From positions 1 to 54,276 of IMG/VR virus record IMGVR_UViG_3300048895_000205: a DNA stretch of 54,276 nucleotides; one strand, written 5' to 3'. Numbering within the stretch: the first letter of the stretch is position 1; each line of letters begins with the position of its first letter. Source of the stretch: a virus (lineage: Duplodnaviria; Caudoviricetes). Both the position numbers and the translations under genes were made by a program. The notes under the pieces are model-generated. The model saw nothing but the letters and a program-made list of their open reading frames with translations, did not search any database and was not told the DNA's origin. Of this stretch, positions 9,819 to 30,168 are shown in pieces.

Positions 9819-9820
9819 GA

Positions 9821-12964: not shown

Positions 12965-12965
12965 G

Positions 12966-13037: not shown

Positions 13038-13128
13038 TTTTGACCACCATGAGCAGGCGATGGACGACCCCTTTCGGCATCGAATTGACAGTGTGCGCAC
13101 ACAGCAACCCGATGTTGTTCCGGCTTCG

Positions 13129-13201
13129 TTGCGGAGACCGGACTTGAACCGGCGACCTCTGGGTTATGAGCCCAGCGTGCTACCAACTGCACCACTCCGC
13201 G
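13129..13201 (-). tRNA. initiator tRNA-fMet(CAT), CCA not encoded
   Basis: C1:A72 mismatch, anticodon stem CTGGG/CCCAG with three G-C pairs, loop CT-CAT-AA. Confidence 0.92.
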
Positions 13202-13205
13202 ATGT

Positions 13206-13790
13206 CGGGCGACCCTGCTCCCTGAAGCAAGAGCAGGGGCGCCCTAGGGCCGGGTTCGGTTTCCCGAACGCCAGTTCCACCACTCCCCGCTCGGCCTTGA
13301 GCTAGGAGTTTGAGGGGGGCTCCGAATCCATCGTCGGTCCGGTTGAGGTCCTAGGATCGGAGCCCCCATGCGCCAGTTCTTTCGGGCTAAGCGGAGAACT
13401 GGCAATCCGCCACGGTCGCCTCACACTCTCGCTGGAAGGGCGAAGAGCGAGCGGGGCGCGCCCTCGTGGGCGCTCTCGGGAACTAATCGGGGGATCGACG
13501 CCGAGAGCAGCGCCACGTTAAGCAGGAGTCCAAGAAGGTGTGGTCATTGGACCCTTCTTGCAGTGCCCAGAAAGGTACCGCCCCGCCAATGAAGGCGGGA
13601 AACTCCTACGTGGATCCCCAGACGGAGAACGCCGAGAACGCCGCCTGGGGGCTTTGTTCTGCCCCGGTATCCCATCGCGTTGGTCTAGAGCGACGGGGGG
13701 ACCTGAGACTGGACGCTGGAACAGGAGGAACAGCGCAGCCTCACCGGGGCAGAAGATTCAGTTGTCAAGGGTGACCGTCTTGCCTTGCTG
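13206..13790 (-). ncRNA. large structured non-coding RNA candidate (~590 nt)
   Basis: no credible ORF; at least 8 nested or adjacent stems; lies between a TTGACA promoter and tRNA-fMet. Confidence 0.7.
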
Positions 13791-13796
13791 AAGCCA

Positions 13797-13827
13797 ACTC
13801 TACTACACCCCTACGTAGGGGTGTCAA
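13797..13827 (-). promoter_or_regulatory. promoter with palindromic operator
   Basis: TTGACA-N19-TAGAGT; perfect palindrome ACACCCCTACGTAGGGGTGT. Confidence 0.65.
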
Positions 13828-13881
13828 CCCTCAACTTCGTGGTTTCTGTACGTACCCGAATGTCCCAGTTACGCTGATCTT

Positions 13882-15309: not shown

Positions 15310-15475
15310 TCAACCGCGCAATCATTCGGTACCTCCGGCGCATGTGTGCGATGGCCACTGGCACACCAGCGGGACTCTCGGCTCAGGCCAACCCAGTGTG
15401 GGCGATTGTCGTCGGCGCCGCAGTTGCAGGACTTGATCGGTTCGGCGCAGAACCGACACTTCGCAGTAATGGTGA

Positions 15476-15688
15476 TCAGCCGCCGGCCGGTTGGAATCCG
15501 AACTCGGCCAGTCGGCGCATGAAACTGCGCACGACCATAAGATGCTCGACCGTGCTGAGTCGGGGACACTGGACCTCGTGCGTGAGGCCGCATATGAATG
15601 CATCCTCGCGGTCTTCGTGGTCAACGCATTCGAACGTGCATCCCGTGTGATCGCATTTGACTTTGAATGCTTCCGTGACCTCGAACAT
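15476..15688 (-). CDS. hypothetical Cys/His protein
   Basis: MFEVTEAFKVKCDHTGC...; GGAGGGG SD. Confidence 0.65.
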   Translation of the reverse strand: MFEVTEAFKVKCDHTGCTFECVDHEDREDAFICGLTHEVQCPRLSTVEHLMVVRSFMRRLAEFGFQPAGG

Positions 15689-15701
15689 CGCCCCTCCAAT
15701 T

Positions 15702-15739
15702 AAAGAGGGGCCGAGTCGCATATCCGGCGACCCGGCCCC
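15702..15739 (-). terminator. intrinsic terminator closing the RNA module
   Basis: GGGGCCGGGTCGC/GCGACTCGGCCCC (G-U pair on minus only) followed by TCTTT. Confidence 0.75.
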
Positions 15740-15761
15740 AACGACTGGGTTTTTGAGACCC

Positions 15762-15834
15762 ATTCCTTTGCAGGAATTGAACCTGCAACTCTCGGTTTAC
15801 AAGACCGATGCTCTGCCTATTGAGCTAAAAGGAT
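15762..15834 (-). tRNA. tRNA-Thr(TGT) with atypical acceptor stem
   Basis: GCTC/GAGC D stem, TCGGT-CT-TGT-AA-ACCGA, GCAGG-TTCAATT-CCTGC; A1:A72 mismatch; no CCA. Confidence 0.8.
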
Positions 15835-15841
15835 TGTCGGC

Positions 15842-16003
15842 GTTGCCATCCTTGTCAACCAGCAAACATTTAAAGCCACGTCTGAGATCTACAGAGCCGT
15901 CGCTCTACCACTGAGCTACAGGGCCATGTTGGAGGCCCCATCGGGGATCGAACCCGAGACTACGGCTATCTGATCGCGACTACTCGATCTGGCTGACCGC
16001 AAC
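15842..16003 (-). ncRNA. circularly permuted tRNA-like RNA (YrlA/Y-RNA-like topology)
   Basis: order is T arm, acceptor 3' strand + TCCA, ACAT linker, acceptor 5' strand, D arm; anticodon-stem AGCCGT/ACGGCT opens into a long closing stem. Confidence 0.85.
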
Positions 16004-16126
16004 AATATTGAGTTTGGGGCAATAGATTTCAGATTGAAAGCGAGCGCCACTCTTTAGGGCGGTGTGCGCTTTACCTCATGAGATTCAGCTTGTGCCCATC
16101 CGGCATATAGCCGGAGCTTGTGACGG

Positions 16127-16870
16127 CTACGCGGTGAAGACGTAACCGAGGATCTTCTCGCCGATCTCCTGGTCGGGCGCAACCGTGGAGTTGGCGTTCT
16201 CGCGGGCGATCTTGACCGCCTCCTGGAGCTTCAGTACCCGGGCGCGCAGTACGTTCACTTCGGACTGCGGCAGTGCACCGGAGAGCTTGATGGTAGTCCA
16301 GTCGCCGACGATCGTGTCCTCGCCGTACGTCTCCACCTGGGCCGGGTGCTTGTCCGTGGCCGGGGCCTTGACGTGGTTGCGCAGGACCTTCTTGGAGCGC
16401 GTGCTCTGCGAGGTTGTGATGTAGGCGTCGTGCTCCGTGCTCCAGGTCCATTCCTCCGATGGGTCGAGCACGGGGAGCTTGGACACGAAAGTGTGCAGGT
16501 CGACGAGCTTCTTCTCCAGCGTCAGCAGGAACGTGACCGGTACATCCTTGGCCAGCACGATTCCGTCGACTGCGATGTCGGACTTGGCCAGCTGGTTCCC
16601 GTTGTCCTTGGTCAGTTCGACGTCGAACAGGCGGACGAAGGCATTGGACAGGTCGGCGATCAGGTCCCTGGCGCGGAGCTGGAGGCGGGTGCCCTCGGGC
16701 GGAAGCTTCTCGCCCTCGTCGTCACGCGGCTTGTAGGTCCGAGCGATGCCGGACAGCTTGGGCGTGGCCTGAGCCAGGTGGTACGTCGTCGTGACCGTTC
16801 TCTCGGCATCGGCCTTGGCCCCCTTGGCGACCGCGATGACCTGGTTGAGCCTGAGTGGCGTCTTCGCCAT
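16127..16870 (-). CDS. conserved hypothetical protein (LNQVIAV.KG family; recalled as DUF7873-like, unverified)
   Basis: LNQVIAVAKG, LSGIARTYKP.DDEGEKLPPE, VPVTFLLTLEKKL, ATDKHPAQV, VKIARENAN. Confidence 0.85.
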   Translation of the reverse strand: MAKTPLRLNQVIAVAKGAKADAERTVTTTYHLAQATPKLSGIARTYKPRDDEGEKLPPEGTRLQLRARDLIADLSNAFVRLFDVELTKDNGNQLAKSDIAVDGIVLAKDVPVTFLLTLEKKLVDLHTFVSKLPVLDPSEEWTWSTEHDAYITTSQSTRSKKVLRNHVKAPATDKHPAQVETYGEDTIVGDWTTIKLSGALPQSEVNVLRARVLKLQEAVKIARENANSTVAPDQEIGEKILGYVFTA

Positions 16871-16903
16871 GATCTTCTCTCTCTCTGGGCTTACACTGCA
16901 AGC

Positions 16904-17212
16904 GTGGAACACATGCACGAATGCGAGCATTGCGGCTGCTCAGGCGCACTCTCCGTGCAGGTCCTCACCGTTCTGTTGGAGATCAAGTTAAGACTGGAGC
17001 AGCACATGACTCAGGAATCCGATGCCCTGGATGCCCTATCCGCCAAGGTTGATCTGCTGATCGCTGACGTGCGCGCTGCGCTCGCTGCGATCCAGCAGGA
17101 TCCCGGCACGCTTGGCCCTGACGGCCAGGCTGCGCTCGATGCACTGACCGCGAAGGTCGATGCGTTCGGCGCCGAGGTTGGCGACGCCGACCAGGATGGC
17201 CAGGTCGCCTAG
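16904..17212 (+). CDS. hypothetical helical protein
   Basis: TACACT-N6-GTG leaderless-type start; alternative ATG 17006 after GGAG. Confidence 0.6.
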   Translation: MEHMHECEHCGCSGALSVQVLTVLLEIKLRLEQHMTQESDALDALSAKVDLLIADVRAALAAIQQDPGTLGPDGQAALDALTAKVDAFGAEVGDADQDGQVA

Positions 17213-17222
17213 TCCCCCCAGT

Positions 17223-17274
17223 GAGTGCGGGCTCTCGTTCTTCCCCCCTCGAAAGAGGCCGAGAGCCCGCACTC
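17223..17274. terminator. strong hairpin, possibly bidirectional terminator
   Basis: GAGTGCGGGCTCTCG/CGAGAGCCCGCACTC perfect 15-bp inverted repeat. Confidence 0.65.
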
Positions 17275-17344
17275 TTCTCGCAGGAACAGCTTGCCGGCCA
17301 GCCTGCGAGAGTGGTTGGGAGCCCTAGGTGCGTGTGACTCCTTG

Positions 17345-17374
17345 AACCTACAGGGGTACGTACCCCGGTGTCAA
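17345..17374 (-). promoter_or_regulatory. promoter with palindromic operator in spacer
   Basis: TTGACA-N18-TAGGTT; spacer contains GGGGTACGTACCCC. Confidence 0.8.
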
Positions 17375-17375
17375 G

Positions 17376-17531
17376 CTACTCGCCCTCCCACTCCCGACGA
17401 GTCCTCTCGATCCGCTCCCGGGCCGCCCGGTCGGCTTCCTTCTTCTGACGGGCACGCTCCTCGGCCAGGATCCGCTCGCGTCGTTCCCGCTCTTCCCTCT
17501 CGCCGCGCTCGCGGTCATTCTCTTTGGTCAC
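17376..17531 (-). CDS. small E/R-rich helical protein (51 aa)
   Basis: MTKENDRERGEREERERRER...; TATATT-N6-GTG. Confidence 0.65.
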   Translation of the reverse strand: MTKENDRERGEREERERRERILAEERARQKKEADRAARERIERTRREWEGE

Positions 17532-17537
17532 TTCATC

Positions 17538-17567
17538 AATATACCGGGGTACGTACGGGTGACGTAA
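17538..17567 (-). promoter_or_regulatory. promoter with operator in spacer
   Basis: TTACGT-N18-TATATT; spacer contains CCCGTACGTACCCC. Confidence 0.6.
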
Positions 17568-17630
17568 GCCCTTGACCGGCGCCAGTTCAAGGTGTATTGG
17601 AATGCCGGTAGTTCCCTCTATGATGCGATC

Positions 17631-17933
17631 ATGCTGGCGATATGGGCGTATGTCCTGATCACTCTGGCCGCGGCCCGGGTGACCCGGCTGGTTACCAAGG
17701 ATCGAATCGCGCTGGGACTGCGCAAGGGAATCGTGGCCAAGTACGGCGAAGGCTATTGGCTGGCCTACTTGGTTTTCTGCCCGTTCTGCGTCGGCTTCTG
17801 GCTGTCTTTGCCGGCCACTGTCGCCTGGATGCTGCTGACCCTGCCGCTGCATCTGTGGTGGCTGGCCGTTCCTGCTTGGCCGGCAATGAGCTATCTGATT
17901 GCACCGGTGCTGCTCAAGCTAGAAGGTGACTAA
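17631..17933 (+). CDS. DUF1360-like membrane protein
   Basis: LAAARVTRLVTKDRI...CPFCVGFW; directly before portal; TATGAT-N6-ATG. Confidence 0.8.
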   Translation: MLAIWAYVLITLAAARVTRLVTKDRIALGLRKGIVAKYGEGYWLAYLVFCPFCVGFWLSLPATVAWMLLTLPLHLWWLAVPAWPAMSYLIAPVLLKLEGD

Positions 17934-19885
17934 TGGCCTTCGGCCGGAGCAAGGACGTCGCGGTCATTGAGGACGCGCCTGTCGTTCGCGCGTCCCGCGG
18001 TACGCCTCGCTCCTTGGTCGCATCCGCGGTCCAGATGCGCATGGACGACGCCTCATACAACACGTACCGCTTTCGCGATGAGACTTGGCAGCGTGAGCTG
18101 TGGCGCCTGTATGACATCATTCCCGAGTTCGGCTACGCCGCTCGTTGGGTCGGCTCATGCTGCTCGCAGGTCCGGATCTTTGTAGCCGAGGTCGACAAGC
18201 TCGGACGGGTCCAGGGCGAGACAACCAACGAGAAGATCAACGCGCTCTCGGACAGCCTGCTCGGCGGTCCCAGCTCGAAAGCCGAAGCGCTACGGTCCAT
18301 CGGCATCAACCTGACCGTGGCCGGCGAGGCCTACATCCTCGGTCGTACCGACAACGTCCTGGACAAGGACGAGTGGTTCATTCTCTCCAGCTCCGAGTTC
18401 CGCCGGGTCCGCAACTGCGGAAACAACGGCGGTACGTGTCTTGGGTGGGGCGACAAGTACGCACCGCAGATCGTGGACCTAGCCAAGCAGGTCGTCACTC
18501 GGGTCTGGACCCCGCATCCGCAGCGCATTTGGCTGGCCGACTCACCTTCGCGCTCGTGTCAGCCGGTTCTGCGCGAGCTGGAACAGCTCACCAAGTACGT
18601 GTTCAGCCAGATCGATAGCCGCCTGGTCGGCGCTGGCCTACTGGTCATCCCCAACAACCTGGACTTCCCGCAGGACCCGGCGCAGGAAGAGAACGTCTCC
18701 TCGTCGGACACGCTGCTGATGAAGCTGGCCACGGCTGGCGCGGCCTCGCTCCGCGGTGAGGGCACGGCGATGGCGGTCCTGCCGCACATCATCGAGGCCA
18801 ACCCTGAGGACGTCGAGCGCGGCTTCCGGCTCATCGAGTTCGCCAGCGAACTGTCCAAGCAGGCCATGGAGCTGCGCGACGAGGCGATCCGCCGGCTGGC
18901 CACTGGCATGGACATGCCGGCCGAGGCGCTGACGGGCATGGGCGATACGAACCACTGGAACGGTTGGTTCATCGACGGCTACGGCATCAAGGTCCACATT
19001 GAACCGTTGATGAACCGGATCTGTCAGGCGCTCACCAAGGCCTACCTGATCCCGGCACTCAAGCTCATGGGCGTCAAGGACCCAGCCCGGTACCAGTTCT
19101 CCTTCGATACCGCCCCGCTCGCAGTGCGCCCGCAGCGACTTCAGGATGCCCTGAACCTGTACGAGAAGCGCATCATCGGGGCTGCCGCGGTGCGCGATGC
19201 CGGCAACTTCAAGGAGTCCGACGCGATGACCGGCGACGAGCTGGCCGCGAGCGAGACCCTGGAGATCGTCCTGCGTGATCCAAACCTGTATCAGAAGCTG
19301 GGTGTCCGCGAACTCATCGGCATCAGCAAGGAGATGCTGCCGCAGGACGAGTTCATCATGGCCACACCCGGCCTGGGTGGAGGCGGCCCGGGAGCACCGC
19401 CACCACCTGCGCCGCCGACCGGAATCCAGTCAGAGCTACCGCCACCCATTCCGGACACCCAAGGCGAGATACCCCCGCCGCAAGGCACGCCACCGGGCGG
19501 GGGCGGCGCGGTGACCGCCTCCCTGGCTTCCCGGGAGGAACTGGGTCTGATCGTGCTGTCCGAGGCCGCGGTCCGGCGCGGGCTTGAGCTGGCCGGGAAG
19601 CGCCTGCTGGATCGGCATAACCGTGACAGATGGCCAGACGTGCCACACTTCGATCTCCATACACGCATCCGCGTCACAGACACTGCACACGCGACCCGTC
19701 TGCTCAACGGCGCCTGGGACCAGCTCAATGGACTCGTGGATGTCTTGGATGCGGACGTAGACCCAGATCGGCTCCGTCAGTCGCTTCACCGTTACTGCTG
19801 TGCCCTTCTTACGACGGCCAGTCCCCACGTCCCGCAGAACCTTTTCGCCATGCTGCGCGCAGAAGGCCTTATTCATGGGAGCTAG
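17933..19885 (+). CDS. portal protein
   Basis: WQ.E.WRLYD..PE, R.W.PHP, AIRRLA.GMDMP.E.L.G....NHW; position in head module. Confidence 0.88.
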   Translation: MAFGRSKDVAVIEDAPVVRASRGTPRSLVASAVQMRMDDASYNTYRFRDETWQRELWRLYDIIPEFGYAARWVGSCCSQVRIFVAEVDKLGRVQGETTNEKINALSDSLLGGPSSKAEALRSIGINLTVAGEAYILGRTDNVLDKDEWFILSSSEFRRVRNCGNNGGTCLGWGDKYAPQIVDLAKQVVTRVWTPHPQRIWLADSPSRSCQPVLRELEQLTKYVFSQIDSRLVGAGLLVIPNNLDFPQDPAQEENVSSSDTLLMKLATAGAASLRGEGTAMAVLPHIIEANPEDVERGFRLIEFASELSKQAMELRDEAIRRLATGMDMPAEALTGMGDTNHWNGWFIDGYGIKVHIEPLMNRICQALTKAYLIPALKLMGVKDPARYQFSFDTAPLAVRPQRLQDALNLYEKRIIGAAAVRDAGNFKESDAMTGDELAASETLEIVLRDPNLYQKLGVRELIGISKEMLPQDEFIMATPGLGGGGPGAPPPPAPPTGIQSELPPPIPDTQGEIPPPQGTPPGGGGAVTASLASREELGLIVLSEAAVRRGLELAGKRLLDRHNRDRWPDVPHFDLHTRIRVTDTAHATRLLNGAWDQLNGLVDVLDADVDPDRLRQSLHRYCCALLTTASPHVPQNLFAMLRAEGLIHGS

Positions 19886-20612
19886 CTCCGGGGCTGAGGA
19901 CTCCGTCTACCAGGCTGCGAAGCGCGGACTTCGGGCCTTCCTGGGTCGCGCCCGCGATCTGGTACTGGCGCCGTTCGGGAAGTTCGGGGCCACGCCGAAT
20001 CCAGAAGCTGTCTACGCAGCCGTACCCGTTTGGCAGGCGGAAGTAGACCGCATCATGAATGCACTCACCCCAGCCTTGCAGGAGGGCTGGGCCGCTGCAC
20101 ATCTCAGCGGGAGCTACAGCCCGTCCGATCCGTACGTCCAGGCCAACCTCGCCCTGACTCACAATCTTCTTGTTCGCGTGCCAGATGAGATTCACGCAGT
20201 AGTTATCCGGGAGATTCTGGCCGGCACTAATGCGGGCGAGGACAATGCGACGATTGCCCGACGGGTAAACGGAGTGCTTGATTACTCGGGCGTTGAGAAT
20301 TGGGATAATAGGGCCCGGGTGATTGCAAACACCGAAACTAACCGTCACTACAATTCCTCCCTCTTGGCGCATGCCCTGCTGGTGGAGCGGCAGGACGGTG
20401 GCGGGACGTACACGAAGCAATGGGACACGCGCATGGACGGCAGGGAGCGCGACGCCCACAAGCGGGCGAACAACCAGGTACGTACCCTGTCACAACCTTA
20501 CAGCGTCGACGGCCAACCGCTGATGTTCCCCGGCGACCCGACCGGCGCTCCCGAGAACGTGATCAACTGCCGCTGCTCTCAGGTCATCCGTAAGTCTGGA
20601 GTCCCACTATGA
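19875..20612 (+). CDS. MuF-like (SPP1 gp7-type) minor head protein
   Basis: RA..IA.TE, KQW....D.RER.AH, LMFPGDP....ENVINCRC. Confidence 0.9.
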   Translation: MGASSGAEDSVYQAAKRGLRAFLGRARDLVLAPFGKFGATPNPEAVYAAVPVWQAEVDRIMNALTPALQEGWAAAHLSGSYSPSDPYVQANLALTHNLLVRVPDEIHAVVIREILAGTNAGEDNATIARRVNGVLDYSGVENWDNRARVIANTETNRHYNSSLLAHALLVERQDGGGTYTKQWDTRMDGRERDAHKRANNQVRTLSQPYSVDGQPLMFPGDPTGAPENVINCRCSQVIRKSGVPL

Positions 20613-22573
20613 CGATCCGCTACACCGGCCTGATCGCTCCGGAGGAGACGCCGACCGGCGACGGCCGCCTGTTTGCCGCCGGCAAGGGCACCACGCGCCC
20701 GCTTCCGGTACCCGTGATGGCCAAGTTCCAGTCCGGCGGCCACGTGGACGCTACGGTCGTGGGCAAGCTGGTCCGCACGTTCGCCGGCCCCGGCGGCATG
20801 TGGGGCTCGATCGACTTCCTGGACCCGGCCATGGTCCCTGAGGTCAACAAGGCCATGTACATGTTGGACAACAAGGTCATGGGTCCGAGCGTGGACCTCG
20901 ACCGCGACTACACCATCGAGCAGGCGCCGCACCCGACCAAGGTCGGGTCGAAGGTCGCTCGGTTCTCCTCGTACAACATCGTCGGCGTGACGCTGGTACC
21001 GATGCCGGCGTTCAGCCAGGTCCACCTCAGCGTCGACAACAAGGAAGAGCAGCAGGCTCTTCTCGCCTCAGCCGGCGTCTGGATGAGCTTCGACATCAAC
21101 GCGCGGGCCTGGGACCAGTGGCCGATCGCTGACCGGCAGTACACCTGGAATGCTGACGACGCGGTCAAGCGGATCGCCGCCTGGTCTGGTATCGGGACCA
21201 AGACGCCGAGCCTGGACCACTACGCCTCGACGTTCCTGTGGCGTGACGGCTCGCAGGCCGGCGACACGCTCGCCCAGGACAGCTTCCGGCTGCCCTTGGC
21301 CGACATCATCGACGGCCAGCCACACCTGGTCTACCACGCGGTGTACGCCGCCGCGGCGCTGCTGGCCGGCGGCCACGGTGGCCTGCCGAACATCCCGCAG
21401 CCCGAGCAGGAGCGGATGAAGGGCGTCATCAACGCCATCTACGACAAGATGGCTAAGGCGTTCCAGGACTCCTCCATGCACTCGCCGTTCGCCGGACCGC
21501 AGCACGCCTCGCTCGACACCGACTGCGGGTGCGAGGACTTCGCGGCCAAGGTTCAGCCGTACGGGGACGTCGAGTACGCCGACCCCGGCTTCCGGGACAA
21601 CAAGAAGCGTTACCCGGTGGACACGCCCGAGCATGTCCGCGCAGCGTGGTCGTACATCAACCAGGGCGACAACGCAGCTGAGTACACGCCCGAGCAGTTG
21701 GCGCACATCAAGGCGGCGATCAAGAAGGCGGCCAAGAAGCATGATGTCGACATCGCTGGAGAGTCCGACGAGCGCGAGTCTTCTCGTGAAGCCGAGAACG
21801 AGCGCCAGGCGGCGCTCATCGCAGGAGTGGCACCCATTGCTCCCCCGCGTGAGTGGTTCGATAACCCTCGACTCAAGGGACCTACCCGATTCACTATTGA
21901 CCCTAGTGGACGCGTGTTTGGCCATGTGGCCGAATGGAAGAAGTGCCACCTCGGCATCGGAGACCGCTGTGTCATCGCGCCCAAGTCCCGCACGAACTAC
22001 CGCTACTTCCGGCTCGGACCGGTGCTGTGCGCTGACGGCACACTGGTCGACTGCGGCAAGATCACTCTGGGCGCAGGTCACGCCAACGAGCAGTGGGGCG
22101 TCATTCCTTCCCGCGAGCACTACGACAATTCAGCCCTCTGCGCTGCTGTGGTCAACGTGGGCGAAGATCAGTATGGGATCTGGGTGGCGGGAGCACTCAC
22201 TGCGGGAATGACCGAGGAGAAGATCGCGGAGCTGCGTCGGTCCCCGCTATCCGGCGACTGGCGCCGGGTCGACGGCAACCTGGAGATGATTGCGGCTCTG
22301 GCTGTAAACAACCCTGGTTTCGTCGTACGCGAAAAGGACGGCGCGACCTTCTCCATGATGGGTGTCGGCGTGGTTGAGGACGAGCCAGCGGACACGGCGG
22401 AGTTCGACGCTCGCCTGGCCGCCATTCAGGACCGCCGCGACGCGCTCAGGGCCAAGCAGAAGGCTGATCGACTCAAGACCATCCAAGATAAGAAGACGGC
22501 GCTGGACGCGAGCAAGGAAGACCAGATGCTCGCAGTGCAAATGAATGCTCAGTTCCACGTCCTTCAGGAGTAG
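20609..22573 (+). CDS. capsid maturation protease with inserted domains
   Basis: E..PTGDGR.F, TLVPMPAF, GRVFGHVA.W..CH, GIWVAG, LSGDWR..LAVN.PGF; internal YADPG...KRYPVDT..HVRAAWSYI. Confidence 0.8.
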   Translation: MTIRYTGLIAPEETPTGDGRLFAAGKGTTRPLPVPVMAKFQSGGHVDATVVGKLVRTFAGPGGMWGSIDFLDPAMVPEVNKAMYMLDNKVMGPSVDLDRDYTIEQAPHPTKVGSKVARFSSYNIVGVTLVPMPAFSQVHLSVDNKEEQQALLASAGVWMSFDINARAWDQWPIADRQYTWNADDAVKRIAAWSGIGTKTPSLDHYASTFLWRDGSQAGDTLAQDSFRLPLADIIDGQPHLVYHAVYAAAALLAGGHGGLPNIPQPEQERMKGVINAIYDKMAKAFQDSSMHSPFAGPQHASLDTDCGCEDFAAKVQPYGDVEYADPGFRDNKKRYPVDTPEHVRAAWSYINQGDNAAEYTPEQLAHIKAAIKKAAKKHDVDIAGESDERESSREAENERQAALIAGVAPIAPPREWFDNPRLKGPTRFTIDPSGRVFGHVAEWKKCHLGIGDRCVIAPKSRTNYRYFRLGPVLCADGTLVDCGKITLGAGHANEQWGVIPSREHYDNSALCAAVVNVGEDQYGIWVAGALTAGMTEEKIAELRRSPLSGDWRRVDGNLEMIAALAVNNPGFVVREKDGATFSMMGVGVVEDEPADTAEFDARLAAIQDRRDALRAKQKADRLKTIQDKKTALDASKEDQMLAVQMNAQFHVLQE

Positions 22574-22575
22574 TA

Positions 22576-25500
22576 GTGCTGGCGCTGCTGGAAATGAACC
22601 AGTCGACCGAGGAATTCGCGGTCGACTTGGCGGCGTGGGAACCGCAACTTCACCCTCGTGACTCGCATGGTCGGTTCCGCGATAAGTGGGGACTGCCGCC
22701 GGCCATCAAGAAGGCCGTCGAGGCGATCCTCAAGAACTTCTCGCCGGCCACCTTCCGCTCTGATGCTCACGCCCAGGGCTACACCGAATCACTGCACGCC
22801 AAGCAGCACCACGATCCGCTCCAGCAGGCCAGTCTCGACTACTTCATGACCACCCGCGGTGCGGACGACATCCAGTCCACGCTTCGGGCGGGCAAGGACG
22901 ACACACCGCACATTCGCGGACTCGACCAGGCGATGAAGCCGCTACCGAACGACGTTCTACTGACCCGGGTCGTCGGCCCTGAGGCGTTCGGCCTGCCGCC
23001 CGAGCGCATCGGCGAGGTCGAGGAGTGGACCGGCCGCCTGGTCACGGACAAGGGATTCCAGCCGACGAACCTTGGCAACCCGCTCAGTCCGGGGGATGCC
23101 TCGGCCGGGCACATCACCCTGTCCTTGGTCACTCCACGCGGGACCAAAGCAGCCATCCCCGGCGGCTCGCGCTCGGTCATTTTGGATCGCGAGCAGCCCT
23201 ATCGGATCATGCGCGTCACGCCGGACGGCAAGGGTGGTCTGTTCGTCTACGGCGTGGTCGAGCCCAAGCAGAGCGCGGTCAAGCGCACGCCGGCCCACAA
23301 CCTCGGTAAGGAGCTGCCCGGTCACGAGCACGCGCCGGCCATCGACGCGACGCCGGCTGAGCATGCGAAGCGCGGACTCAACCCCGACGGCACGCCGATG
23401 GTCAATCCAAATGCGACCGCGCCACCGGCCGTGGACACCAGTCGACCCGATCTGGCGCAACCGAACGGGCCGCAGCCGACTACGCTCGCGCCGAACGCGA
23501 GCGCGCCTACTCAGCCCGCAGTCAGCGACCAGCAGCGCCACCTGGACAAGGCCAAGCAGGCGCACGACCGCATCGCGGCTGACCGCGCGGCTGGGCGCGA
23601 ACCGTCCAAGGAGGACATTCGTCGGGCTGCCCATCATTCCAGCGCCGCCGAGGCCGCGGCCAAGGCGGAGGAACCGGCGAAGGCTAAGGAAGTTCAGGAT
23701 CTCCGCGACCAGGTTGAAGAGCTACGCAAGCAGGTTAAGGCCGCGGCGGCTCCAGCGAAGGCGGTACCAACCAAGAAGGCTGCGAAGTCAGTACCGAAGA
23801 AGGTCCCATCCAAGGCCGTCCAGGAGGCCGGCAAGGGAACCAAGTCTCCCGTTCAGCGCGACCACGGGCAGCCTGATGAATTCCTTCAGGGGCCCAAAAA
23901 GGCGGGCGCCCGCGAGGCTGGTCAGGTTTCTGGCATCGTTTCGAAGTCGAAGACCGGCCTGACCGAGCACGAGCAGTCCACCAACGGTCCCGACAGTGCA
24001 GGCCTCGGTGGCCGGGCTGGCCGGGCGCCGGCAGCCAAGAAGGCGGTCGCCAAGGCCGCGAGGGCAGCTCCGGCCAAGAAGGCCGCGCCCGCGAAGAAGG
24101 CTGCTCCGGCAGAGGTCGCGCCCGACCAGTATGAGAAGACCACGGTCGCGAATCTGAAGGCGGAAGCCGGCAAGCGCGGTATCAAGATCCTGTCGCGCGA
24201 TCGCAAGGCCGACATCGTGGCCAAGCTGCGCGAGGACGACAAGAGCAAGGGCGAAACCAAGGGCAAGACGTTCATAGGCAACGTGCCCTCGACGCACGGC
24301 AACGCCAACCCCGTTGAGGAACCGCGCAAGGCGACAACGCCAGCTCTGGATGTACGAGCCGAGGGTCGCAAGGCTGCGCGGGCGGCGCGTCAGCGAGTGG
24401 CCAAGGCTCAGATCGCGGCCGAGGCTCAGGCCACGGTCAACGAGCTGAACGCTAAGGGCGCCTCGCACGACGTCATCGCGAAGCATCTGCGTGCGATCGC
24501 ATCCGGTCCGAGCTTGGACGAGATCAGCGATCCTGATGCGCGAGCGCTCATGCGGGGCCGACTGGAGGAAGCAGCCGATGCCTTCAAGGAAGGCCACAAC
24601 GTTGACGCGGTCGTGAAGCTTCGACTGTTGTCGAAGGAGCACGGGGTCAAGGTCGAGGGCAAGGCGAAGGACATCGTCGACTTCAACCCCGACAAGCACG
24701 ACCACGTCGGTGCCGGCTTGGAGCCCGGCGACAAGGCGCAGATCATCAAGCCCGGGGCGATTGATGCCGAAGGTCGAGTCCTACACAAGGCCGTCGTTCG
24801 CAAGGCGCCGGCCGAGGACGTCGCCAAGGCCGCCGAGGCAGAGCGCACACCGATCGTGCCGTTGACCGCGGTCGCGGCGAAGGCCGGCATCGAGCCGCAG
24901 ACGATGTCGGGCCAGCAGGCGATGAGCGAGGCCGGGCGCATGGTTCGGCAGGGCAAGGACGGTAAGGAAATCGCTGCCCGTCTCCGCGAGCACGCGGACA
25001 GTCTGGAGCAGGTCGAGAATCCTGAGATCGGCGATCGCTTGCACCATTCGCCGGAAGACGTCACCGATATCCAGAAGGCCGATGTGCGCGAACTGCGCCG
25101 ACTGGCCGGCCTGGTCGAGAAGCAGTACAAGGCCCGCGATGTGACGCCGGCCAAGAAGGCGACTACGCCGCCTGGGCGCGAGCCCCGGGCAGCCAAGGCA
25201 CTCCCCGAGAAGGTCCAATCAAGGGCGGCCAAGGCTGCCGCAGAAGAGGCATCACCGACCGAGGCCAGTCCGAGCTTCGATGCCAAGAAGGCGAAGACCT
25301 ACAGTCCCGTTGTTCAGGTGAAGCACGCGGACATCATGGACGCCCCGGCGGACAAGAAGACCACGATCGTTCCAGAATGGGGCGGCGAGCAGCACTTCAT
25401 CGGCCCGTGGGTGGCCGTGAAGAACGACGAAGGAAAGGTTGCCTACGGCTCCGCCCTGAAAGAGTGGATGGACATGCACGAGCGTGTCCCTGGAACCAAG

Positions 25501-27378
25501 GACGGATGGCAGAAAACCGCCACGGTAGATGCCTACCAGCACACGGGCGCCCCGACGAAGGTGCCAACGGTGCTCGCTGACGGCACGGTCGAGACCGAGA
25601 ACACAGTTAACCCCGGGGACTGGGTAGTAAAGCAGAAGAACGGCGAAGTGCAGATCATCCGGGACGACAAGTTCCGCAAGCTGTATGACGCAGGGCCATC
25701 TACGCCGGCCAAGGCGGCATCTAAGGCTGCCAAGGCCGCCGCGCCGGCCAAGAAGGTTGCAACCAAGGCTGCGAAGTCGGCTGCTCCCGGCGACTCCGGA
25801 GAGCTACCGACTCCCGAGGAGGCCGTGCGTCAAGCTCAGTCAGCGCTATCAGCGAAGGCTTACAAGGACCTAGTAGCAATGGCAGAAGTCGCGTTCCACA
25901 ACGCTGGCTTCACTCGGCCGCCTGATGACACTCCGAAGAACAAGGCCATCAACAAGGCCATGGACCGGTTGACCGCGCTTGGTTATATCCGGGACATCGA
26001 AAACACCGACCCTCAGCACCCCGGCCGGCGCATGTTCGAGATGACCGACCTTGGTCGGCTAGCCGCTGGGCAGAAGTTGCGTGGCCGAGAAGCACCGTCG
26101 ACCGCAGCCAAGAAGGCAGCAACGCCGGCCGAACGACTGGCTGCGCTACCCAAGCGAGTGCCGTCCAAGGCACTCAACGCACCCGAGCCACAGGGTGACG
26201 TGCCGCGGATCGCTGACATCCAGCTGCCGCCGATGAAGATGCTCCGTACTCATGTCCGGGAGCCCAATCCGGTCCGCGACTTCATCGTCGATCTGAAGCA
26301 GGGCATCCGGCCCACAGAGCAATCTCGTGATGGCCAGCTCAAGAGCATGAAGGTCGGCCAGCTCAAAGAGCTGTTGACTCGCCTCGGCGTCGAGGACACG
26401 ACTGGGCGCAAGGACGACCTGGTCGAGCGCGTTCACGCACGATTGGCGCGGATGGAGGGGCTCGACCGGTCCGAGCGAAGCCCAGTCGTCCGTGAGTTGA
26501 TGAAGTCGACCATGAAGGATCTAAAGGAGCAGATGGCTCGCAAGGGTCTGAAGGTCCCGCCGCGAGCCAAGAAGGAGGACCTGGTCGCCATCCTCGCGGG
26601 CAAGCCGGCTGGCAAGCACCACGCCAAGGAGACGCCGGGCATCGCCGCGGTCCGCGAAACGGTCGAAGGCGGCACCAAGGACCGCAAGTACTACGGCGAC
26701 GGGATGAGCGCACAGGTTGCCCTGGTCGAAGGGTCCAACGGCAAGCTGCTGGTCCGCAAACGCCACCTCACGGACTACATACAGAACGCCAAAGACCAGT
26801 CGGACGCGGAGAATCTAGCTTCCCGGGTCGGCCAGGCGCTGGGCGTTCCGGCTCCGCACGTATTCCAGCCCGACACCGACACCGTCTACATGGAGCACGT
26901 GGCTGGGAAGTCTGCCTTCAAAGAGGGCGACGAGGAAATGCAGCGCATCGCTGGCACCGAGGCCGGCAAGCGCATCGCGATCTTCGACGCGATCATCGGT
27001 AACAGTGACCGTCACAACGCGAACTGGCTAATTCCGGATGGCAATCCCGACCATCCAGTGCCGATCGACCACGGACTCGGCTGGATGCGTCAGGCCGGGC
27101 CGGATGAGCATGGAGAGTACCCACCTAGCCCCTTCCACTCGACCGATGTCTTCGCCCCTCGGTGGGTCCAGAAGCCCGAAGGCAACAACGGCCAGAACGC
27201 GGAAAACCCGGGTGGCCACTGGAAGGACAAGATCGAGGTCAGTCGTTCCGAGCTTGACCGTATGCGCGCCCGCCTGGTTCGCTTGCGTCCGGAGTTCCTC
27301 CAGAACGGCCGCCTGGACTGGTACGAGGGCATGCTCGGGCGCATGGATGCGATCATTAAGCGAGCGACACTGCCATAA
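22576..27378 (+). CDS. 1600-aa multidomain minor head protein (degenerate ART, SAP/HeH-like, GrpE-like, PGDYG-like, HipA/PI3-4K-like kinase)
   Basis: HPRDSHGRF N-terminal motif; PAKKAA repeats; FDAIIGNSDRHNANW...IDHG. Confidence 0.8.
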   Translation: MLALLEMNQSTEEFAVDLAAWEPQLHPRDSHGRFRDKWGLPPAIKKAVEAILKNFSPATFRSDAHAQGYTESLHAKQHHDPLQQASLDYFMTTRGADDIQSTLRAGKDDTPHIRGLDQAMKPLPNDVLLTRVVGPEAFGLPPERIGEVEEWTGRLVTDKGFQPTNLGNPLSPGDASAGHITLSLVTPRGTKAAIPGGSRSVILDREQPYRIMRVTPDGKGGLFVYGVVEPKQSAVKRTPAHNLGKELPGHEHAPAIDATPAEHAKRGLNPDGTPMVNPNATAPPAVDTSRPDLAQPNGPQPTTLAPNASAPTQPAVSDQQRHLDKAKQAHDRIAADRAAGREPSKEDIRRAAHHSSAAEAAAKAEEPAKAKEVQDLRDQVEELRKQVKAAAAPAKAVPTKKAAKSVPKKVPSKAVQEAGKGTKSPVQRDHGQPDEFLQGPKKAGAREAGQVSGIVSKSKTGLTEHEQSTNGPDSAGLGGRAGRAPAAKKAVAKAARAAPAKKAAPAKKAAPAEVAPDQYEKTTVANLKAEAGKRGIKILSRDRKADIVAKLREDDKSKGETKGKTFIGNVPSTHGNANPVEEPRKATTPALDVRAEGRKAARAARQRVAKAQIAAEAQATVNELNAKGASHDVIAKHLRAIASGPSLDEISDPDARALMRGRLEEAADAFKEGHNVDAVVKLRLLSKEHGVKVEGKAKDIVDFNPDKHDHVGAGLEPGDKAQIIKPGAIDAEGRVLHKAVVRKAPAEDVAKAAEAERTPIVPLTAVAAKAGIEPQTMSGQQAMSEAGRMVRQGKDGKEIAARLREHADSLEQVENPEIGDRLHHSPEDVTDIQKADVRELRRLAGLVEKQYKARDVTPAKKATTPPGREPRAAKALPEKVQSRAAKAAAEEASPTEASPSFDAKKAKTYSPVVQVKHADIMDAPADKKTTIVPEWGGEQHFIGPWVAVKNDEGKVAYGSALKEWMDMHERVPGTKDGWQKTATVDAYQHTGAPTKVPTVLADGTVETENTVNPGDWVVKQKNGEVQIIRDDKFRKLYDAGPSTPAKAASKAAKAAAPAKKVATKAAKSAAPGDSGELPTPEEAVRQAQSALSAKAYKDLVAMAEVAFHNAGFTRPPDDTPKNKAINKAMDRLTALGYIRDIENTDPQHPGRRMFEMTDLGRLAAGQKLRGREAPSTAAKKAATPAERLAALPKRVPSKALNAPEPQGDVPRIADIQLPPMKMLRTHVREPNPVRDFIVDLKQGIRPTEQSRDGQLKSMKVGQLKELLTRLGVEDTTGRKDDLVERVHARLARMEGLDRSERSPVVRELMKSTMKDLKEQMARKGLKVPPRAKKEDLVAILAGKPAGKHHAKETPGIAAVRETVEGGTKDRKYYGDGMSAQVALVEGSNGKLLVRKRHLTDYIQNAKDQSDAENLASRVGQALGVPAPHVFQPDTDTVYMEHVAGKSAFKEGDEEMQRIAGTEAGKRIAIFDAIIGNSDRHNANWLIPDGNPDHPVPIDHGLGWMRQAGPDEHGEYPPSPFHSTDVFAPRWVQKPEGNNGQNAENPGGHWKDKIEVSRSELDRMRARLVRLRPEFLQNGRLDWYEGMLGRMDAIIKRATLP

Positions 27379-27386
27379 GGAGAGAG

Positions 27387-27605
27387 ATGGCCCGCGTACT
27401 GGAGCTGCATGACGAGACGACTGACTCGTCCACGCCTACCGGCCAGACGGCCACGTTGAACGATGACGGAACTGTCACGTTCAACGGTGATCAGATCAAA
27501 GCGATCATGGTGCAAGGTCTAGCGCGCTACAAGCCCGACAAGGTCTTCGACAACATGGCTGGTTGGTCCAATGGATACAGCGCCAGCCTTAAGGAAAGGA
27601 AGTAG
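27387..27605 (+). CDS. hypothetical protein following kinase domain
   Basis: TAAGGAG SD; C-terminal GWSNGY. Confidence 0.75.
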   Translation: MARVLELHDETTDSSTPTGQTATLNDDGTVTFNGDQIKAIMVQGLARYKPDKVFDNMAGWSNGYSASLKERK

Positions 27606-27607
27606 TC

Positions 27608-27763
27608 ATGGGTTGCAACTGTGGCGGCTCCGCCGCGTCCCAGCAGCAGGCTTACGAGGTCATCGTGAATGGCAAGACGGTAGACAAGGAGTTCAGCTCC
27701 AAGCCGGAAGCCGACATCTACGCGACGATGCACAATGGGCGTGTCATTGCCAAGAAGAAGTAG
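27608..27763 (+). CDS. small MGCNCG protein preceding capsid gene
   Basis: hand-translated MGCNCGGSAASQQQAYEVIVNG...IAKKK; GGAAAGGA SD. Confidence 0.75.
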   Translation: MGCNCGGSAASQQQAYEVIVNGKTVDKEFSSKPEADIYATMHNGRVIAKKK

Positions 27764-27846
27764 TCGATCTACACTGCCCCTATCTGCCAGGGCTGTGCTG
27801 AGGGCCTGCCTGGAAGCCATCAAACGGCATTCCGAAAGGCCCTCCC

Positions 27847-29547
27847 ATGGAATTTTCCATTCCGGCGGCCGACAGCCTGACTCGGTTCACGGTTGCGGCC
27901 CTTCGCGACTTGGCCCTTGAGGCTTCCGCCGCGTACGACAAGCTGCACGGCGAGCTGAGCGCGGACCCGGCCACGGCCAGCGACGAGCAGCTCGATTACC
28001 TGGAAGACCTCAACACGTTCATGCTGGCCGTGGACGAGGAGATGGACCGGCGCAACGGCAACTTGGCGCGGTTCTCGACGCTGCCGTCGTCCGCCCCGGC
28101 CGTAGGCACGGCGCCCGAGCCCGAGCCGGTGGTCGAGCCTGAGCCGGCGGCGGCCCCCGCGGCCACGATCACCACGGCGCCGAGCACGTTCGCGACCGGC
28201 ACGGTCACCACGATCGACGTCACCACGGTCCCGAGCGCGGCCGACATCGCTGCGGCCAGCACGGTCGTGGTCGGCGAGATCATGGACAACGGTCCCCAGA
28301 CGCCGCACGCTCAGTTCACGCTGATCGCGGCCCCCGACACCGGCTTTGCGGCCGGCGCAGAGCTGACCGACTGGACCGAGGTCGCGAAGGCGTTCATCAA
28401 CCGGACCGCGTCGTATCGGGGCAGCAAGTCCGCGCAGCAGCACACGGTGGCCATGGTCCGCCGGGACTTCACCGACGAGTTCTCCATGCTGGAGCACGAC
28501 TCGGACGAAGCCCTGAAGACCAAGCTGGACCACGTCCGTGACGAGAAGCGCCTCGAAGGCGGTTCACTGCTAGCCGGCGTCGGTTGGTGTGCTCCGTCCG
28601 AGACGATCTACACCACCTGCAACCAGGTCACCATCTCGGGCATCCTGTCGGTACCGGAGATCGGGGCGCGGCGCGGCGGCATCCGACACAACCAGGGCAT
28701 CGAGTTCGACTCGATCTTCGGCGCCGGCACCGGCTTCAACATCCTCACTGAGGCCCAGGTCATCTCCGACACGGTGAAGACCTGCGTGGCCATCCCGTGT
28801 CCGTCCTTCGTGGACGACCGGCTGAAGGTAGCGGTCCTGTGCCTCACCGGTGACATCCTCCAGAACCGTGGTTACCCCGAGTTCGTATCCGAGTTCGTCC
28901 AGGGCGCGATCGCGGTTAACGCGCACAACGTCAACCGGCAGGTCATCGCCGACATCGTGACCGGCTCCACGGCCGTGCACCTGACCGGTGAGCCGTTCCT
29001 GTCCGACGGTTCGGTGGTCTCCAACCTGATGAGCGCGGTCGACCTGGCCGTCGTCGACATCAAGTACCGGCTGCGCTTGGACCCGGGTGCGACGGTCGAG
29101 ATCGTCCTGCCCATCTGGATCAAGGCCCAGCTGCGGGCTGACTGGATCCGGCGCAATGGCCCGATGGACCCGGACCTGGCCGACTCGGCCATCGCGGCCA
29201 TGTTCACGGCTCGCGGTGCTGCGGTCAGCTACGTCTACGACTGGCAGGACGCCTTCTCGGGCGTCGCCGGCAACCCCGGTGACGACACCCCGATCACGGC
29301 CCTGCCGACCACGGTCAGCTTCTTGGCCTTCCCGGCGGGCACCTGGGTCCTCGCCCGCCAGGATGTCATCCGGCTCGACTCGATCTACGACAGCACGAAC
29401 ATCACCACGAACAAGGTGACCCAGCTCTTCATGGAGGACGGTTTCCGGGCGATGCGCTTCTGCCCGCTGAGCCGGATCTACGACCTGGCCATCTGCCCGA
29501 GCGGTGCGACGGGCGCTCAGCGCTCGGTGGACTGCGTTACCCCGTAA
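27847..29547 (+). CDS. major capsid protein with N-terminal scaffold-like segment
   Basis: SLLAGVGWCAPSETIY, RGGI, CP.F...RL, ILQNRGYPE, YDSTN...N. Confidence 0.9.
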   Translation: MEFSIPAADSLTRFTVAALRDLALEASAAYDKLHGELSADPATASDEQLDYLEDLNTFMLAVDEEMDRRNGNLARFSTLPSSAPAVGTAPEPEPVVEPEPAAAPAATITTAPSTFATGTVTTIDVTTVPSAADIAAASTVVVGEIMDNGPQTPHAQFTLIAAPDTGFAAGAELTDWTEVAKAFINRTASYRGSKSAQQHTVAMVRRDFTDEFSMLEHDSDEALKTKLDHVRDEKRLEGGSLLAGVGWCAPSETIYTTCNQVTISGILSVPEIGARRGGIRHNQGIEFDSIFGAGTGFNILTEAQVISDTVKTCVAIPCPSFVDDRLKVAVLCLTGDILQNRGYPEFVSEFVQGAIAVNAHNVNRQVIADIVTGSTAVHLTGEPFLSDGSVVSNLMSAVDLAVVDIKYRLRLDPGATVEIVLPIWIKAQLRADWIRRNGPMDPDLADSAIAAMFTARGAAVSYVYDWQDAFSGVAGNPGDDTPITALPTTVSFLAFPAGTWVLARQDVIRLDSIYDSTNITTNKVTQLFMEDGFRAMRFCPLSRIYDLAICPSGATGAQRSVDCVTP

Positions 29548-29554
29548 GCGCGTA

Positions 29555-29585
29555 AGGGGAGTCAGGTTCACGCCTGGCTCCCCTT
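29555..29585 (+). terminator. hairpin after capsid gene
   Basis: AAGGGGAGTCAGG/CCTGGCTCCCCTT inverted repeat. Confidence 0.55.
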
Positions 29586-29600
29586 CATCAGGAGGAACTC

Positions 29601-29879
29601 ATGGCTGCTACTGCAAAGGCCCTCCCCGCCACGGGCACGCTGTTGCTGCACACCGGACCGATTCAGGTCACCGGGTTCAGCTACAACAACGGCTCGGGCG
29701 GCGCGGGCGTCATCACGATCTACGACTCGCTGACCGCGACCGGCAAGGTGATCTACCAGGAATCGGTAGCCACCGTCACCGGCGTCGCGCGCCAGCTCAA
29801 CCCCCCGGTCACCGCCACGATCGGGGTCACGGTCAACCTGTCGGCTGCCAGCGGCACCGGCTCCGTCTGGATGGACTGA
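29601..29879 (+). CDS. small beta-rich virion protein (paralog A)
   Basis: HTGP..G....N..IYD.LTATG pattern shared with next gene; AGGAGG SD. Confidence 0.75.
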   Translation: MAATAKALPATGTLLLHTGPIQVTGFSYNNGSGGAGVITIYDSLTATGKVIYQESVATVTGVARQLNPPVTATIGVTVNLSAASGTGSVWMD

Positions 29880-29880
29880 T

Positions 29881-30168
29881 ATGAGCGTTAACGCGAAGTC
29901 CTACAGCACGTCGGGGACCACGGCGGCCGTCCACACTGGACCGGTCCAGTTCTGCGGCTACACGATGGCCAACACGACCGCCAACGCGGCCACGATCATC
30001 GTGTACAACGCCTTGACCGCGACCAGCACGGTCCTGCTCTCGGACACGGTACCGGCGAACAGCTCGCGCATTTTCCAGCTGGCCGCTCCGCTATACGCGT
30101 CGGTTGGTATCACCGTGCAGATCACCGGAACGACGCCAAACGTCGTCGGTTCCGTTCTACTGGACTAA
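29881..30168 (+). CDS. small beta-rich virion protein (paralog B)
   Basis: HTGPV..G...N...VYNALTAT...VGITV..GSV.D. Confidence 0.75.
   Translation: MSVNAKSYSTSGTTAAVHTGPVQFCGYTMANTTANAATIIVYNALTATSTVLLSDTVPANSSRIFQLAAPLYASVGITVQITGTTPNVVGSVLLD

Follow-up and report, generated by a model that had tools for sequence, protein, structure and literature searches.

We report that the uncultured virus represented by the IMG/VR record IMGVR_UViG_3300048895_000205, which we analysed as one window of 54,276 bp covering the whole record (estimated completeness 98%, G+C content 60-67%), is an actinophage-like siphovirus that carries, between its prohead protease and major capsid genes, a gene for a 1600-amino-acid (aa) protein with an unusual string of domains. 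The protein is built as a constant N-terminal unit followed by variable globular modules on basic, A/K/P-rich linkers. We interpret it as a beads-on-a-string polyvalent protein of the head module, which, judging from its gene context, is probably packaged in the head and ejected together with the DNA (we put this at about 55%). A preceding sequence-only reading had listed its domains and proposed a DNA-tethered payload that is injected with the genome for host takeover or anti-defence and includes a dead ADP-ribosyltransferase (ART). Profile and fold searches recovered almost all of the named domains, and the proposed interpretation finds partial support: the string of domains is genuine, the position among head genes in 45/45 related contigs fits a head protein, and the linkers together with the SAP/HeH motifs fit DNA tethering.

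PHROG and Pfam scans place the gene in the head module. It is a single open reading frame (ORF) with a ribosome-binding site (RBS), co-located and co-oriented, in one operon, with the portal, MuF, protease and capsid genes in the order portal, MuF, prohead protease, 1600-aa gene, two small ORFs, major capsid, and then tail genes. The AGGAG sequence and the adjoining TAG stop codon of the protease gene indicate a ribosome site belonging to this gene and tight coupling to the one that precedes it (Table 1). Its G+C content at third codon positions (0.79) lies inside the range of the neighbouring genes, and full-length relatives exist, such as a syntenic 1696-aa homologue in contig L002. Fusion of the protease to the polyvalent protein via a -1 frameshift was considered and dropped, although the frame is open for 28 codons upstream, because the final ~30 codons of the protease gene contain no slippery heptamer of the X_XXY_YYZ type and the RBS and start codon are good. 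In all 45 related IMG/VR contigs the portal, MuF, protease and polyvalent N-terminus are found on one strand, with the protease domain ending 49-1332 nucleotides upstream of the polyvalent N-terminus, and the capsid gene follows downstream wherever the related locus extends far enough.

Residues 1-260 define a large family: phmmer searches yielded at least 339 representatives of clusters formed at 50% identity under the family threshold of E <= 0.001, with 90 of them at E <= 1e-30. We examined 159 family proteins, comprising the query and the relatives returned by full-length and N-terminal homologue searches. The N-terminal domain begins within the first 60 residues in every one of them, and the total length has a median of 1692 aa, reaching at least 1000 aa in 127 proteins, at least 4000 aa in 7, and 7635 aa in the largest. 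Local searches with hidden Markov models identified GrpE-like modules, the commonest variable module, in 49/159 proteins and in up to three copies, kinases in 33 (at the extreme C-terminus in 27 of these), and PGDYG-like modules in five. Pfam scans of 24 relatives revealed a canonical PF03496 ART downstream of the N-terminal unit in P0006, P0021, P0034 and P0037, a NUDIX domain in P0006, and many SAP/Rho_N motifs. Since canonical ART, NUDIX, kinase and SAP/Rho_N domains are found downstream in different relatives, the cargo evidently varies. Modules may also be duplicated within one protein, with two kinases in P0005, P0032, P0036 and P0041, and three GrpE-like modules in P0024.

The constant unit opens with the W..HPRD..GRF..W motif, the core of which had been picked out in the sequence-only reading. 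It occurs only once in the window, and its near-invariance was confirmed in the 159 aligned N-termini, with W21 present in 137, H26/P27/R28 in 146-147, G32 in 147, R33 in 142 and F34 in 134. When the whole protein was compared with the PDB by phmmer, nothing was retrieved. The domain behind the motif belongs to no PHROG family, and aa 1-260 matched no Pfam family even at E 10, PF03496 (ADPrib_exo_Tox) included; among 21 relatives scanned, only P0044 matched PF03496 with its N-terminal domain (26.8 bits vs a cut-off of 23.4). The profile of 31 N-terminal sequences (alignment A1), on the other hand, matched the PDB entries for Lmo0066 from Listeria, VIP2, C3stau2 and iota Ia at E 1e-6 to 1e-4, with CDTa also among the matches and the E range extending to 4e-3. 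The AlphaFold2 (AF2) model of the domain (pLDDT 84.9, pTM 0.81) is in agreement with this assignment, as the Foldseek search placed it on C3bot2 (1r45) at E 3.4e-10 with a TM score on the target of 0.73, and gave 141 PDB matches at E <= 0.001, including numerous chains of C3, VIP2, iota and CDTa. Against the viral structure library, the top-scoring entries were actinophage proteins annotated as 'ADP-ribosyltransferase domain and MuF-like fusion protein', VIP2 proteins, and T4-type Alt. A divergent MuF domain was also considered for this unit and rejected: hhalign against 33 MuF sequences gave P 0.46, MuF is encoded by a separate gene, and PF04233 had no match within the 1600-aa protein, scanned whole and in segments.

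Profile alignments to the PDB place R131 on the catalytic Arg, residues 163-165 on the S-T-S motif and residues 198-200 on ExE. The 1600-aa protein retains R131, has Q-P-T-N at 162-165, so that P163-T164-N165 stands in place of S-T-S, and has S198-R199-S200 in place of ExE or QxE, with Ser at both Glu positions. Thus, the profile, the AF2/Foldseek comparison and the alignment bear out the initial description of a VIP2-type region in which the Arg is kept, STS is replaced by PTN and ExE is missing. Across the family, Arg is found at the R131 position in 113/159 members, the Glu equivalent is missing in 85, and only 38 retain R, S/T and E, whereas G153, G189-T190, D217-G218 and other positions outside the catalytic set are near-invariant. 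The alignment shows that the catalytic residues of this unit are not under selection and its structural positions are fixed. Such drift of the catalytic positions suggests a non-catalytic, presumably anchoring role. The earlier notion of a dead ART serving as scaffold fits the constant N-terminal placement, the unconserved catalytic positions and the presence of a second, canonical ART in several relatives. It is very unlikely that the domain is still an ADP-ribosyltransferase or an NADase operating with non-canonical residues: its fold and R131 are retained, and the 38 members with R, S/T and E indicate that the ancestral domain was probably active, but Pro substitutes for the first serine of STS and both ExE positions are occupied by Ser, while the second Glu of R-S-E ARTs is required for catalysis, and the free variation of the catalytic positions is family-wide.

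The commonest variable module of the family is represented in the 1600-aa protein by a segment in which a resemblance to the C-terminal part of GrpE had been spotted, and homology was borne out. The AF2 model of aa 570-760 (pLDDT 91.8) starts with a helix of 38 residues, which is followed by a bundle of helices and a small beta domain, and in the Foldseek search of 350,542 chains ranks 1-10 were all occupied by GrpE, from human (GrpEL1), E. coli, Thermus and Geobacillus, while the M. tuberculosis protein came in at rank 14; the GrpE matches had E values of 0.018-0.18 and low TM scores of 0.22-0.38. Comparison by hhalign of the GrpE-like alignment (A2) with a profile of 30 GrpE sequences, taken from 41 genomes of one phylum, gave a probability of 95.7% and P 9.6e-9 over 50 columns (aa 679-729), covering the final helix of the bundle and the F-[DN]-P-x-x-H entry into the beta domain. 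In controls, reversed GrpE gave P 0.11 and four unrelated alignments gave P 0.46, 0.019, 0.61 and 0.14, all with a probability of at most 2.5%, and the probability was still 95.1% with 23 of the 30 GrpE sequences, after seven had been removed by a motif filter. E. coli GrpE alone aligned to the same region at P 0.0088; its homologue search returned only near-identical enterobacterial sequences, which were not used for the profile. With VIA-align, GrpE matches had Z 6.3-6.9 and a root-mean-square deviation (rmsd) of 7.6-8.3 A over 128-133 residues (8gb3_E, Z 6.9, rmsd 7.6 A, 128 aligned; 1dkg_B, Z 6.3, rmsd 7.8 A, 130 aligned) and spanned the helices and the beta part, yet were tied with generic bundles, and over 48,161 chains the matches were mostly helical bundles covering residues 15-122 only. 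The Pfam family GrpE (PF01025, cut-off 25.8 bits) did not match the copy in the 1600-aa protein and matched 2/16 family copies, with a best E of 0.014, nor did PF01025 pick up anything when all six frames of the window were searched at E 10. We accept the module, on profile evidence, as a homolog of the C-terminal half of GrpE, and regard a GrpE function as putative only. Complex prediction for Streptomyces coelicolor DnaK 1-385 with this module gave a score of 0.00, which, having been obtained without controls, is informative in neither direction.

The kinase claimed for the C-terminus could be confirmed. The segment alone scores 28.6 bits against PF00454 (cut-off 27.1), the match being limited to the catalytic loop (profile positions 136-170 of 241), and PF00454 is matched by 15/15 family kinase copies, with a best E of 2.8e-9. 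In the alignment of these 15 sequences (A3, numbered by segment; protein position = +1355), no variation is seen at D123, R124 and N128 of the DRHxxN loop or at D143, the DFG-like Asp of IDHG, and conservation reaches at least 90% at K40, the ATP-binding Lys, and at E57, the helix Glu; this speaks for a functional enzyme. The best PDB match of the kinase profile is the type II PI4-kinase PI4K2B (E 4e-5), with only ~40 residues around the catalytic loop aligned, and there is a weak resemblance to HipA_2 (E 0.0076). The unannotated record of Micromonospora phage pMLP1 (CP058906.1) matches the kinase domain at 22754-23410 with 30.6% identity and E 4e-14. As a remote side possibility, the PI4-kinase-like domain may act on phosphatidylinositol lipids, which are present in the membranes of actinobacteria.

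The central PGDYG-like domain of the sequence-only reading is related to PGDYG without being a member by the Pfam threshold: PF14083 scores 16.5 bits (E 0.011) vs a cut-off of 27, over aa 1009-1041 and profile positions 3-35 of 102 only. PGDYG is matched by four of five family copies (best E 1.8e-4), and the module also matches PHROG 419 (E 1e-10) and PHROG 1810 (E 2e-8), both of unknown function. Its alignment retrieved nothing in the PDB profile search, and the ESM Atlas rows at 0.77-0.85, including PGDYG clusters at 0.77 to this module, provide leads only.

The modules are connected by strongly basic stretches. Five windows (aa 361-420, 481-540, 861-900, 1021-1080 and 1161-1200) contain at least 50% A+K+P, confirming the PAKKAA tracts that had been described as histone-H1-like. 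Isoelectric points (pI) are 9.8-10.2 in the linkers and about 6 in the ART-like, PGDYG-like and kinase modules, with 9.4 for the whole protein. Among the three SAP/HeH-like helices that had been proposed, motif 2 (aa 1255-1290) exceeds the Pfam cut-offs when the segment aa 1246-1355 is scanned alone, with HeH (PF12949) at 33.0 bits vs 28.9 and SAP (PF02037) at 24.1 vs 23.9, and motif 3 is a second HeH stretch, but motif 1 (aa 519-555 in the segment scan) stays below the cut-offs (Rho_N E 0.0054, SAP E 0.021); it falls on C-terminal matches of PHROG 2250 and 3281 and is common to 18 family proteins.

These basic features could also be those of an internal head protein which is packaged in a mainly structural capacity, either for condensation or organisation of DNA, as a core or histone-like protein, or as a giant scaffold, its enzyme-like domains being relics. 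The gene occupies the interval between protease and capsid genes, which is the usual place of scaffold genes, and the pI of 9.4, the A/K/P-rich tracts, the three SAP/HeH motifs and the degenerate ART domain would all suit such a role. We consider it improbable, given the conservation of the kinase catalytic residues over 15 copies and the relatives with intact R-S-E ART and NUDIX domains. Moreover, scaffolding could be provided by the capsid protein itself, which has an N-terminal extension of ~150-190 aa that is not alignable to the mature part of its nearest relative, the major head protein of Actinoplanes phage phiAsp2 (46% identity; next come 'major capsid hexamer' proteins from phages of Microbacterium, Gordonia and Mycobacterium). 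Phage phiAsp2 has portal, MuF and protease genes and assembles without a comparable gene ahead of its capsid gene.

A number of observations weigh against a polyvalent protein delivered from the head, or against individual parts of this interpretation. The position of the gene indicates co-expression with head genes, not incorporation into the head, and members of 4000-7635 aa would make a heavy cargo for a capsid. MuF is the known head-incorporation domain and the usual loading domain, and here it is a separate gene with no detectable relation to the domain at the N-terminus. Among 50,697 phage records the family is not represented save for a kinase-only match, and no cultured relative was found: the nucleotide search with window positions 17000-30000 gave no match in these records, whole-protein tblastn detected only the kinase part of Micromonospora phage pMLP1, and a peptide of 47 aa spanning the motif retrieved nothing better than chance (E >= 2). 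With the patterns used, 185,579 species genomes yielded no prophage copy; a 28-residue match in a Vibrio genome was judged spurious because it lies on the opposite strand to the sole large ORF there, an unannotated 422-aa frame. When the protein is scanned as a whole, HeH (22.0 bits) and SAP (20.3 bits) fall below their cut-offs, and PF00454 scores 25.3 bits, just below its own. Firm GrpE homology is limited to about 50 columns, with Pfam GrpE below its cut-off, and the PDB profile search with the GrpE-like alignment retrieved designed helical proteins and EspB, and no GrpE. Finally, the 16 family copies of the module do not conserve the Arg of 'EGRVL', which we align with an Arg of E. coli GrpE that contacts DnaK.

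An alternative is late expression alongside the head genes without packaging, the protein staying in the cytoplasm of the infected cell, where it would act as an assembly factor bringing host DnaK, by way of the GrpE-like module, and DNA, by way of the SAP/HeH motifs and basic tracts, to the assembling procapsid, or as a late host-manipulating kinase. All evidence for head association comes from gene position, which is equally compatible with co-expression, the usual loading domain is absent from the 1600-aa protein, and the prominence of GrpE-like modules (49/159) would suit an assembly factor, the use of chaperones in phage morphogenesis being well established. We nevertheless regard this possibility as unlikely: a constant N-terminal domain combined with freely varying cargo, in chains of up to 7635 aa, is the pattern of delivered multi-effector proteins and not of assembly chaperones, and the canonical ART and NUDIX cargo of the relatives resembles the head-packaged effectors described in the available text of PMC9503650.

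If the polyvalent protein is indeed packaged and ejected, its N-terminal unit would serve as a non-enzymatic anchor, which either brings the chain into the procapsid or attaches it to the portal, and the basic linkers together with the three SAP/HeH motifs would keep the chain on the packaged DNA. The chain would then leave the capsid together with the DNA, and its modules would act early: the kinase, with its catalytic residues intact, may phosphorylate host targets inside the cell, and the GrpE-like module may engage host DnaK, or else mediate dimerisation as a coiled coil. No ADP-ribosylation would be expected from the ART-like domain of the 1600-aa protein. We have also entertained, by analogy and as a highly speculative scenario with little chance of being correct, a self-threading entry device, in which the dead ART with its HPRD..GRF hairpin would attach to the portal or the channel of the tail, much as the inactive N-domain of binary toxins does to its pore, the largely disordered chain would exit as a thread tied to the genome end by the SAP/HeH motifs and basic tracts, and the GrpE-like module would make host DnaK a ratchet pulling in the protein and then the first DNA. 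Such a device would resemble the mitochondrial Hsp70/Mge1 import motor.

Comparison with known systems shows that the protein is most readily described in terms of the polyvalent proteins defined by Iyer, Burroughs, Anand, de Souza and Aravind in 2017 (PMC5512222), for which head packaging and delivery with DNA were predicted. Like the proteins described in the available text of that paper, it is giant, combines several unrelated effector-type domains (ART-like, GrpE-like, PGDYG-like, SAP/HeH and kinase modules), is encoded among virion genes, and carries cargo that varies in its family. Unlike them, it contains none of the hub domains given there (zincin-like MPTase, ArdC-N, SNF2/methylase, PBECR) in Pfam scans of the whole protein and of its segments. 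Furthermore, Alt/VIP2 ARTs are stated there to be absent from genuine polyvalent proteins, and polyvalent-protein kinases are described as a truncated Ser/Thr/Tyr type, whereas here the constant part has an Alt/VIP2-type fold and the kinase is PI3/PI4-like. Neither 'GrpE' (0 occurrences) nor PGDYG appears in the text of PMC5512222, the supplementary domain file of which might list related architectures.

With T4 Alt, which is packaged in the head and injected according to the accessible parts of PMC5512222 and PMC9503650, and with actinophage ART-MuF fusion and VIP2 proteins, the 1600-aa protein shares the C3/VIP2-type fold and the head-gene context. In those proteins, however, the ART is C-terminal on a MuF carrier or standalone and has an R-S-E site, while here the ART-like domain is N-terminal, follows the HPRD..GRF motif, lacks S and E, and is encoded apart from MuF. 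Another parallel is offered by binary toxins (VIP2, iota Ia, CDTa), in which an inactive N-terminal ART-fold domain precedes an active ART, as is also the case in several family members. The inactive domain of the toxins docks on a ring-shaped translocation pore, and entries 6klo and 7vnj are among the Foldseek fold matches of the ART-like domain. By sequence, however, this domain aligns to the catalytic C-domains of the toxins, not to their N-domains, and docking to a portal or tail is an analogy only.

In its AF2 model the GrpE-like module shows the GrpE order of elements, from a long helix through a bundle of helices to a small beta domain, and there is profile-profile homology at the last helix and the beta entry. 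The module differs from GrpE in being embedded in a 1600-aa chain, in staying below the Pfam cut-off and in its poor global superposition, and its DnaK binding is putative. The 'GrpE-like' region of Litunavirus tail fibres, as presented in the available part of PMC12625404, is a coiled coil only, and is different from the present module. The C-terminal domain shares with type II PI4-kinases and PF00454 the DRHxxNW catalytic loop and the IDHG(L) metal-binding motif, but only ~40 of its about 245 residues are alignable, and the substrate of this predicted kinase may be a protein or a lipid. Our literature search found no description of a phage polyvalent protein with a GrpE module and no paper on PGDYG. 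The constant N-terminal unit is previously undescribed, as is the module set in the literature searched. The family is seen only in metagenomes, and the combination of motif and fixed slot provides a searchable handle for phage-delivered effectors in actinophage-like viruses. Parallel to binary toxins, the ART fold seems to have been co-opted for a carrier or anchor role in place of an enzymatic one. With a GrpE-homologous module in about a third of the members examined, the family would, within the searches made, be the first indication of a phage structural-module protein with an Hsp70 co-chaperone-like domain.

Table 1. Position of the 1600-aa protein gene, its domains and the neighbouring genes in the window
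Feature	Position	Strand	Details
Large terminase gene	13882-15309		PHROG/Pfam scans
Portal gene	17933..19885	+	phrog_776, E 1.7e-140
MuF-like head morphogenesis gene	19800..20612	+	PF04233, 46.5 bits; head-morphogenesis PHROGs; true start may be downstream of 19800
Prohead protease gene with DUF6582 insert	20609..22573	+	phrog_18402, phrog_859, DUF6582
AGGAG ribosome-binding site	22566..22570	+	5 nt ahead of GTG (22576)
Protease stop codon TAG	22571-22573	+	Between AGGAG and GTG
Polyvalent protein gene	22576..27378	+	1600 aa; GTG start, TAA stop; from ORF listing
W..HPRD..GRF..W motif	22636..22689	+	aa 21-38; family signature at extreme N-terminus
C3/VIP2-fold ADP-ribosyltransferase-like domain	22708..23280	+	aa ~45-235; catalytically degenerate
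Low-complexity basic linker with PAKKAA tracts	23293..24090	+	aa ~240-505; pI 10.0
Conserved 65-aa island in linker	23842-24036	+	aa 423-487
SAP/HeH/Rho_N-like motif 1	24121..24234	+	aa 516-553
GrpE-like module	24340..24810	+	aa ~589-745; long helix, helical bundle, small beta domain
Helical segment	24856..25155	+	aa ~761-860; 33-35% identity to P0015/P0017
PGDYG-like module	25276..25710	+	aa 901-1045
Possible winged-helix (PadR-like) segment, weak	25873..26070	+	aa ~1100-1165
SAP/HeH motif 2	26329..26445	+	aa 1252-1290
SAP/HeH-like motif 3	26494..26604	+	aa 1307-1343; second HeH stretch; SAP_RNF34, E 0.0056; PHROG 1539, 2724
PI3/PI4-kinase-like domain	26641..27375	+	aa 1356-1600; conserved Lys, Glu, DRHxxN, IDHG
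Major capsid protein gene	27847..29547	+	phrog_777, E 3.4e-118

Three stretches between the named modules, aa 261-505, 761-900 and 1085-1245, carry no domain assignment. Segments can be distinguished within them. The 65-aa island in the first linker is 64% identical to its counterparts in P0012 and P0013, the N-terminal domains of which are only about 33% identical to that of the 1600-aa protein, and it has further matches in P0125 and P0127; the island could represent a short conserved motif for binding or cleavage, or else a module that was exchanged recently. The helical segment matched no Pfam or PHROG family, and the PadR match, which was not on the list of the sequence-only reading, is below the cut-off (E 0.011, 16.1 bits).

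Between the polyvalent and capsid genes there are two small ORFs, at 27387-27605 (72 aa) and 27608-27763 (51 aa), each with an RBS, the second of which has a weak match to DUF7196 (E 1.3e-4). The endolysin gene is located at 42748-43659, and elsewhere (1-17000 and 44900-54276) the window codes for a primase/polymerase-helicase (3121-5646, minus strand), an exonuclease, a ParB-like protein, an RNase H and a RusA-like resolvase; no integrase was seen among the window ORFs scanned.

The 654-aa protease protein harbors the DUF6582 insert at aa 316-383 (77.9 bits). Both halves of this protein are matched by PHROGs (859 and 21406) with profiles that also cover MuF, indicating that MuF-protease(-cargo) fusions exist in this lineage. 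In contig L006 (5091-7991), a 966-aa protease ORF includes an RNA-ligase-like region (phrog_2659, E 2.5e-20), and in Gordonia phage Wizard (L008, genes 16-19) an RNA ligase gene is found between the protease and capsid genes. The interval from protease to capsid looks like a general cargo slot in these phages.

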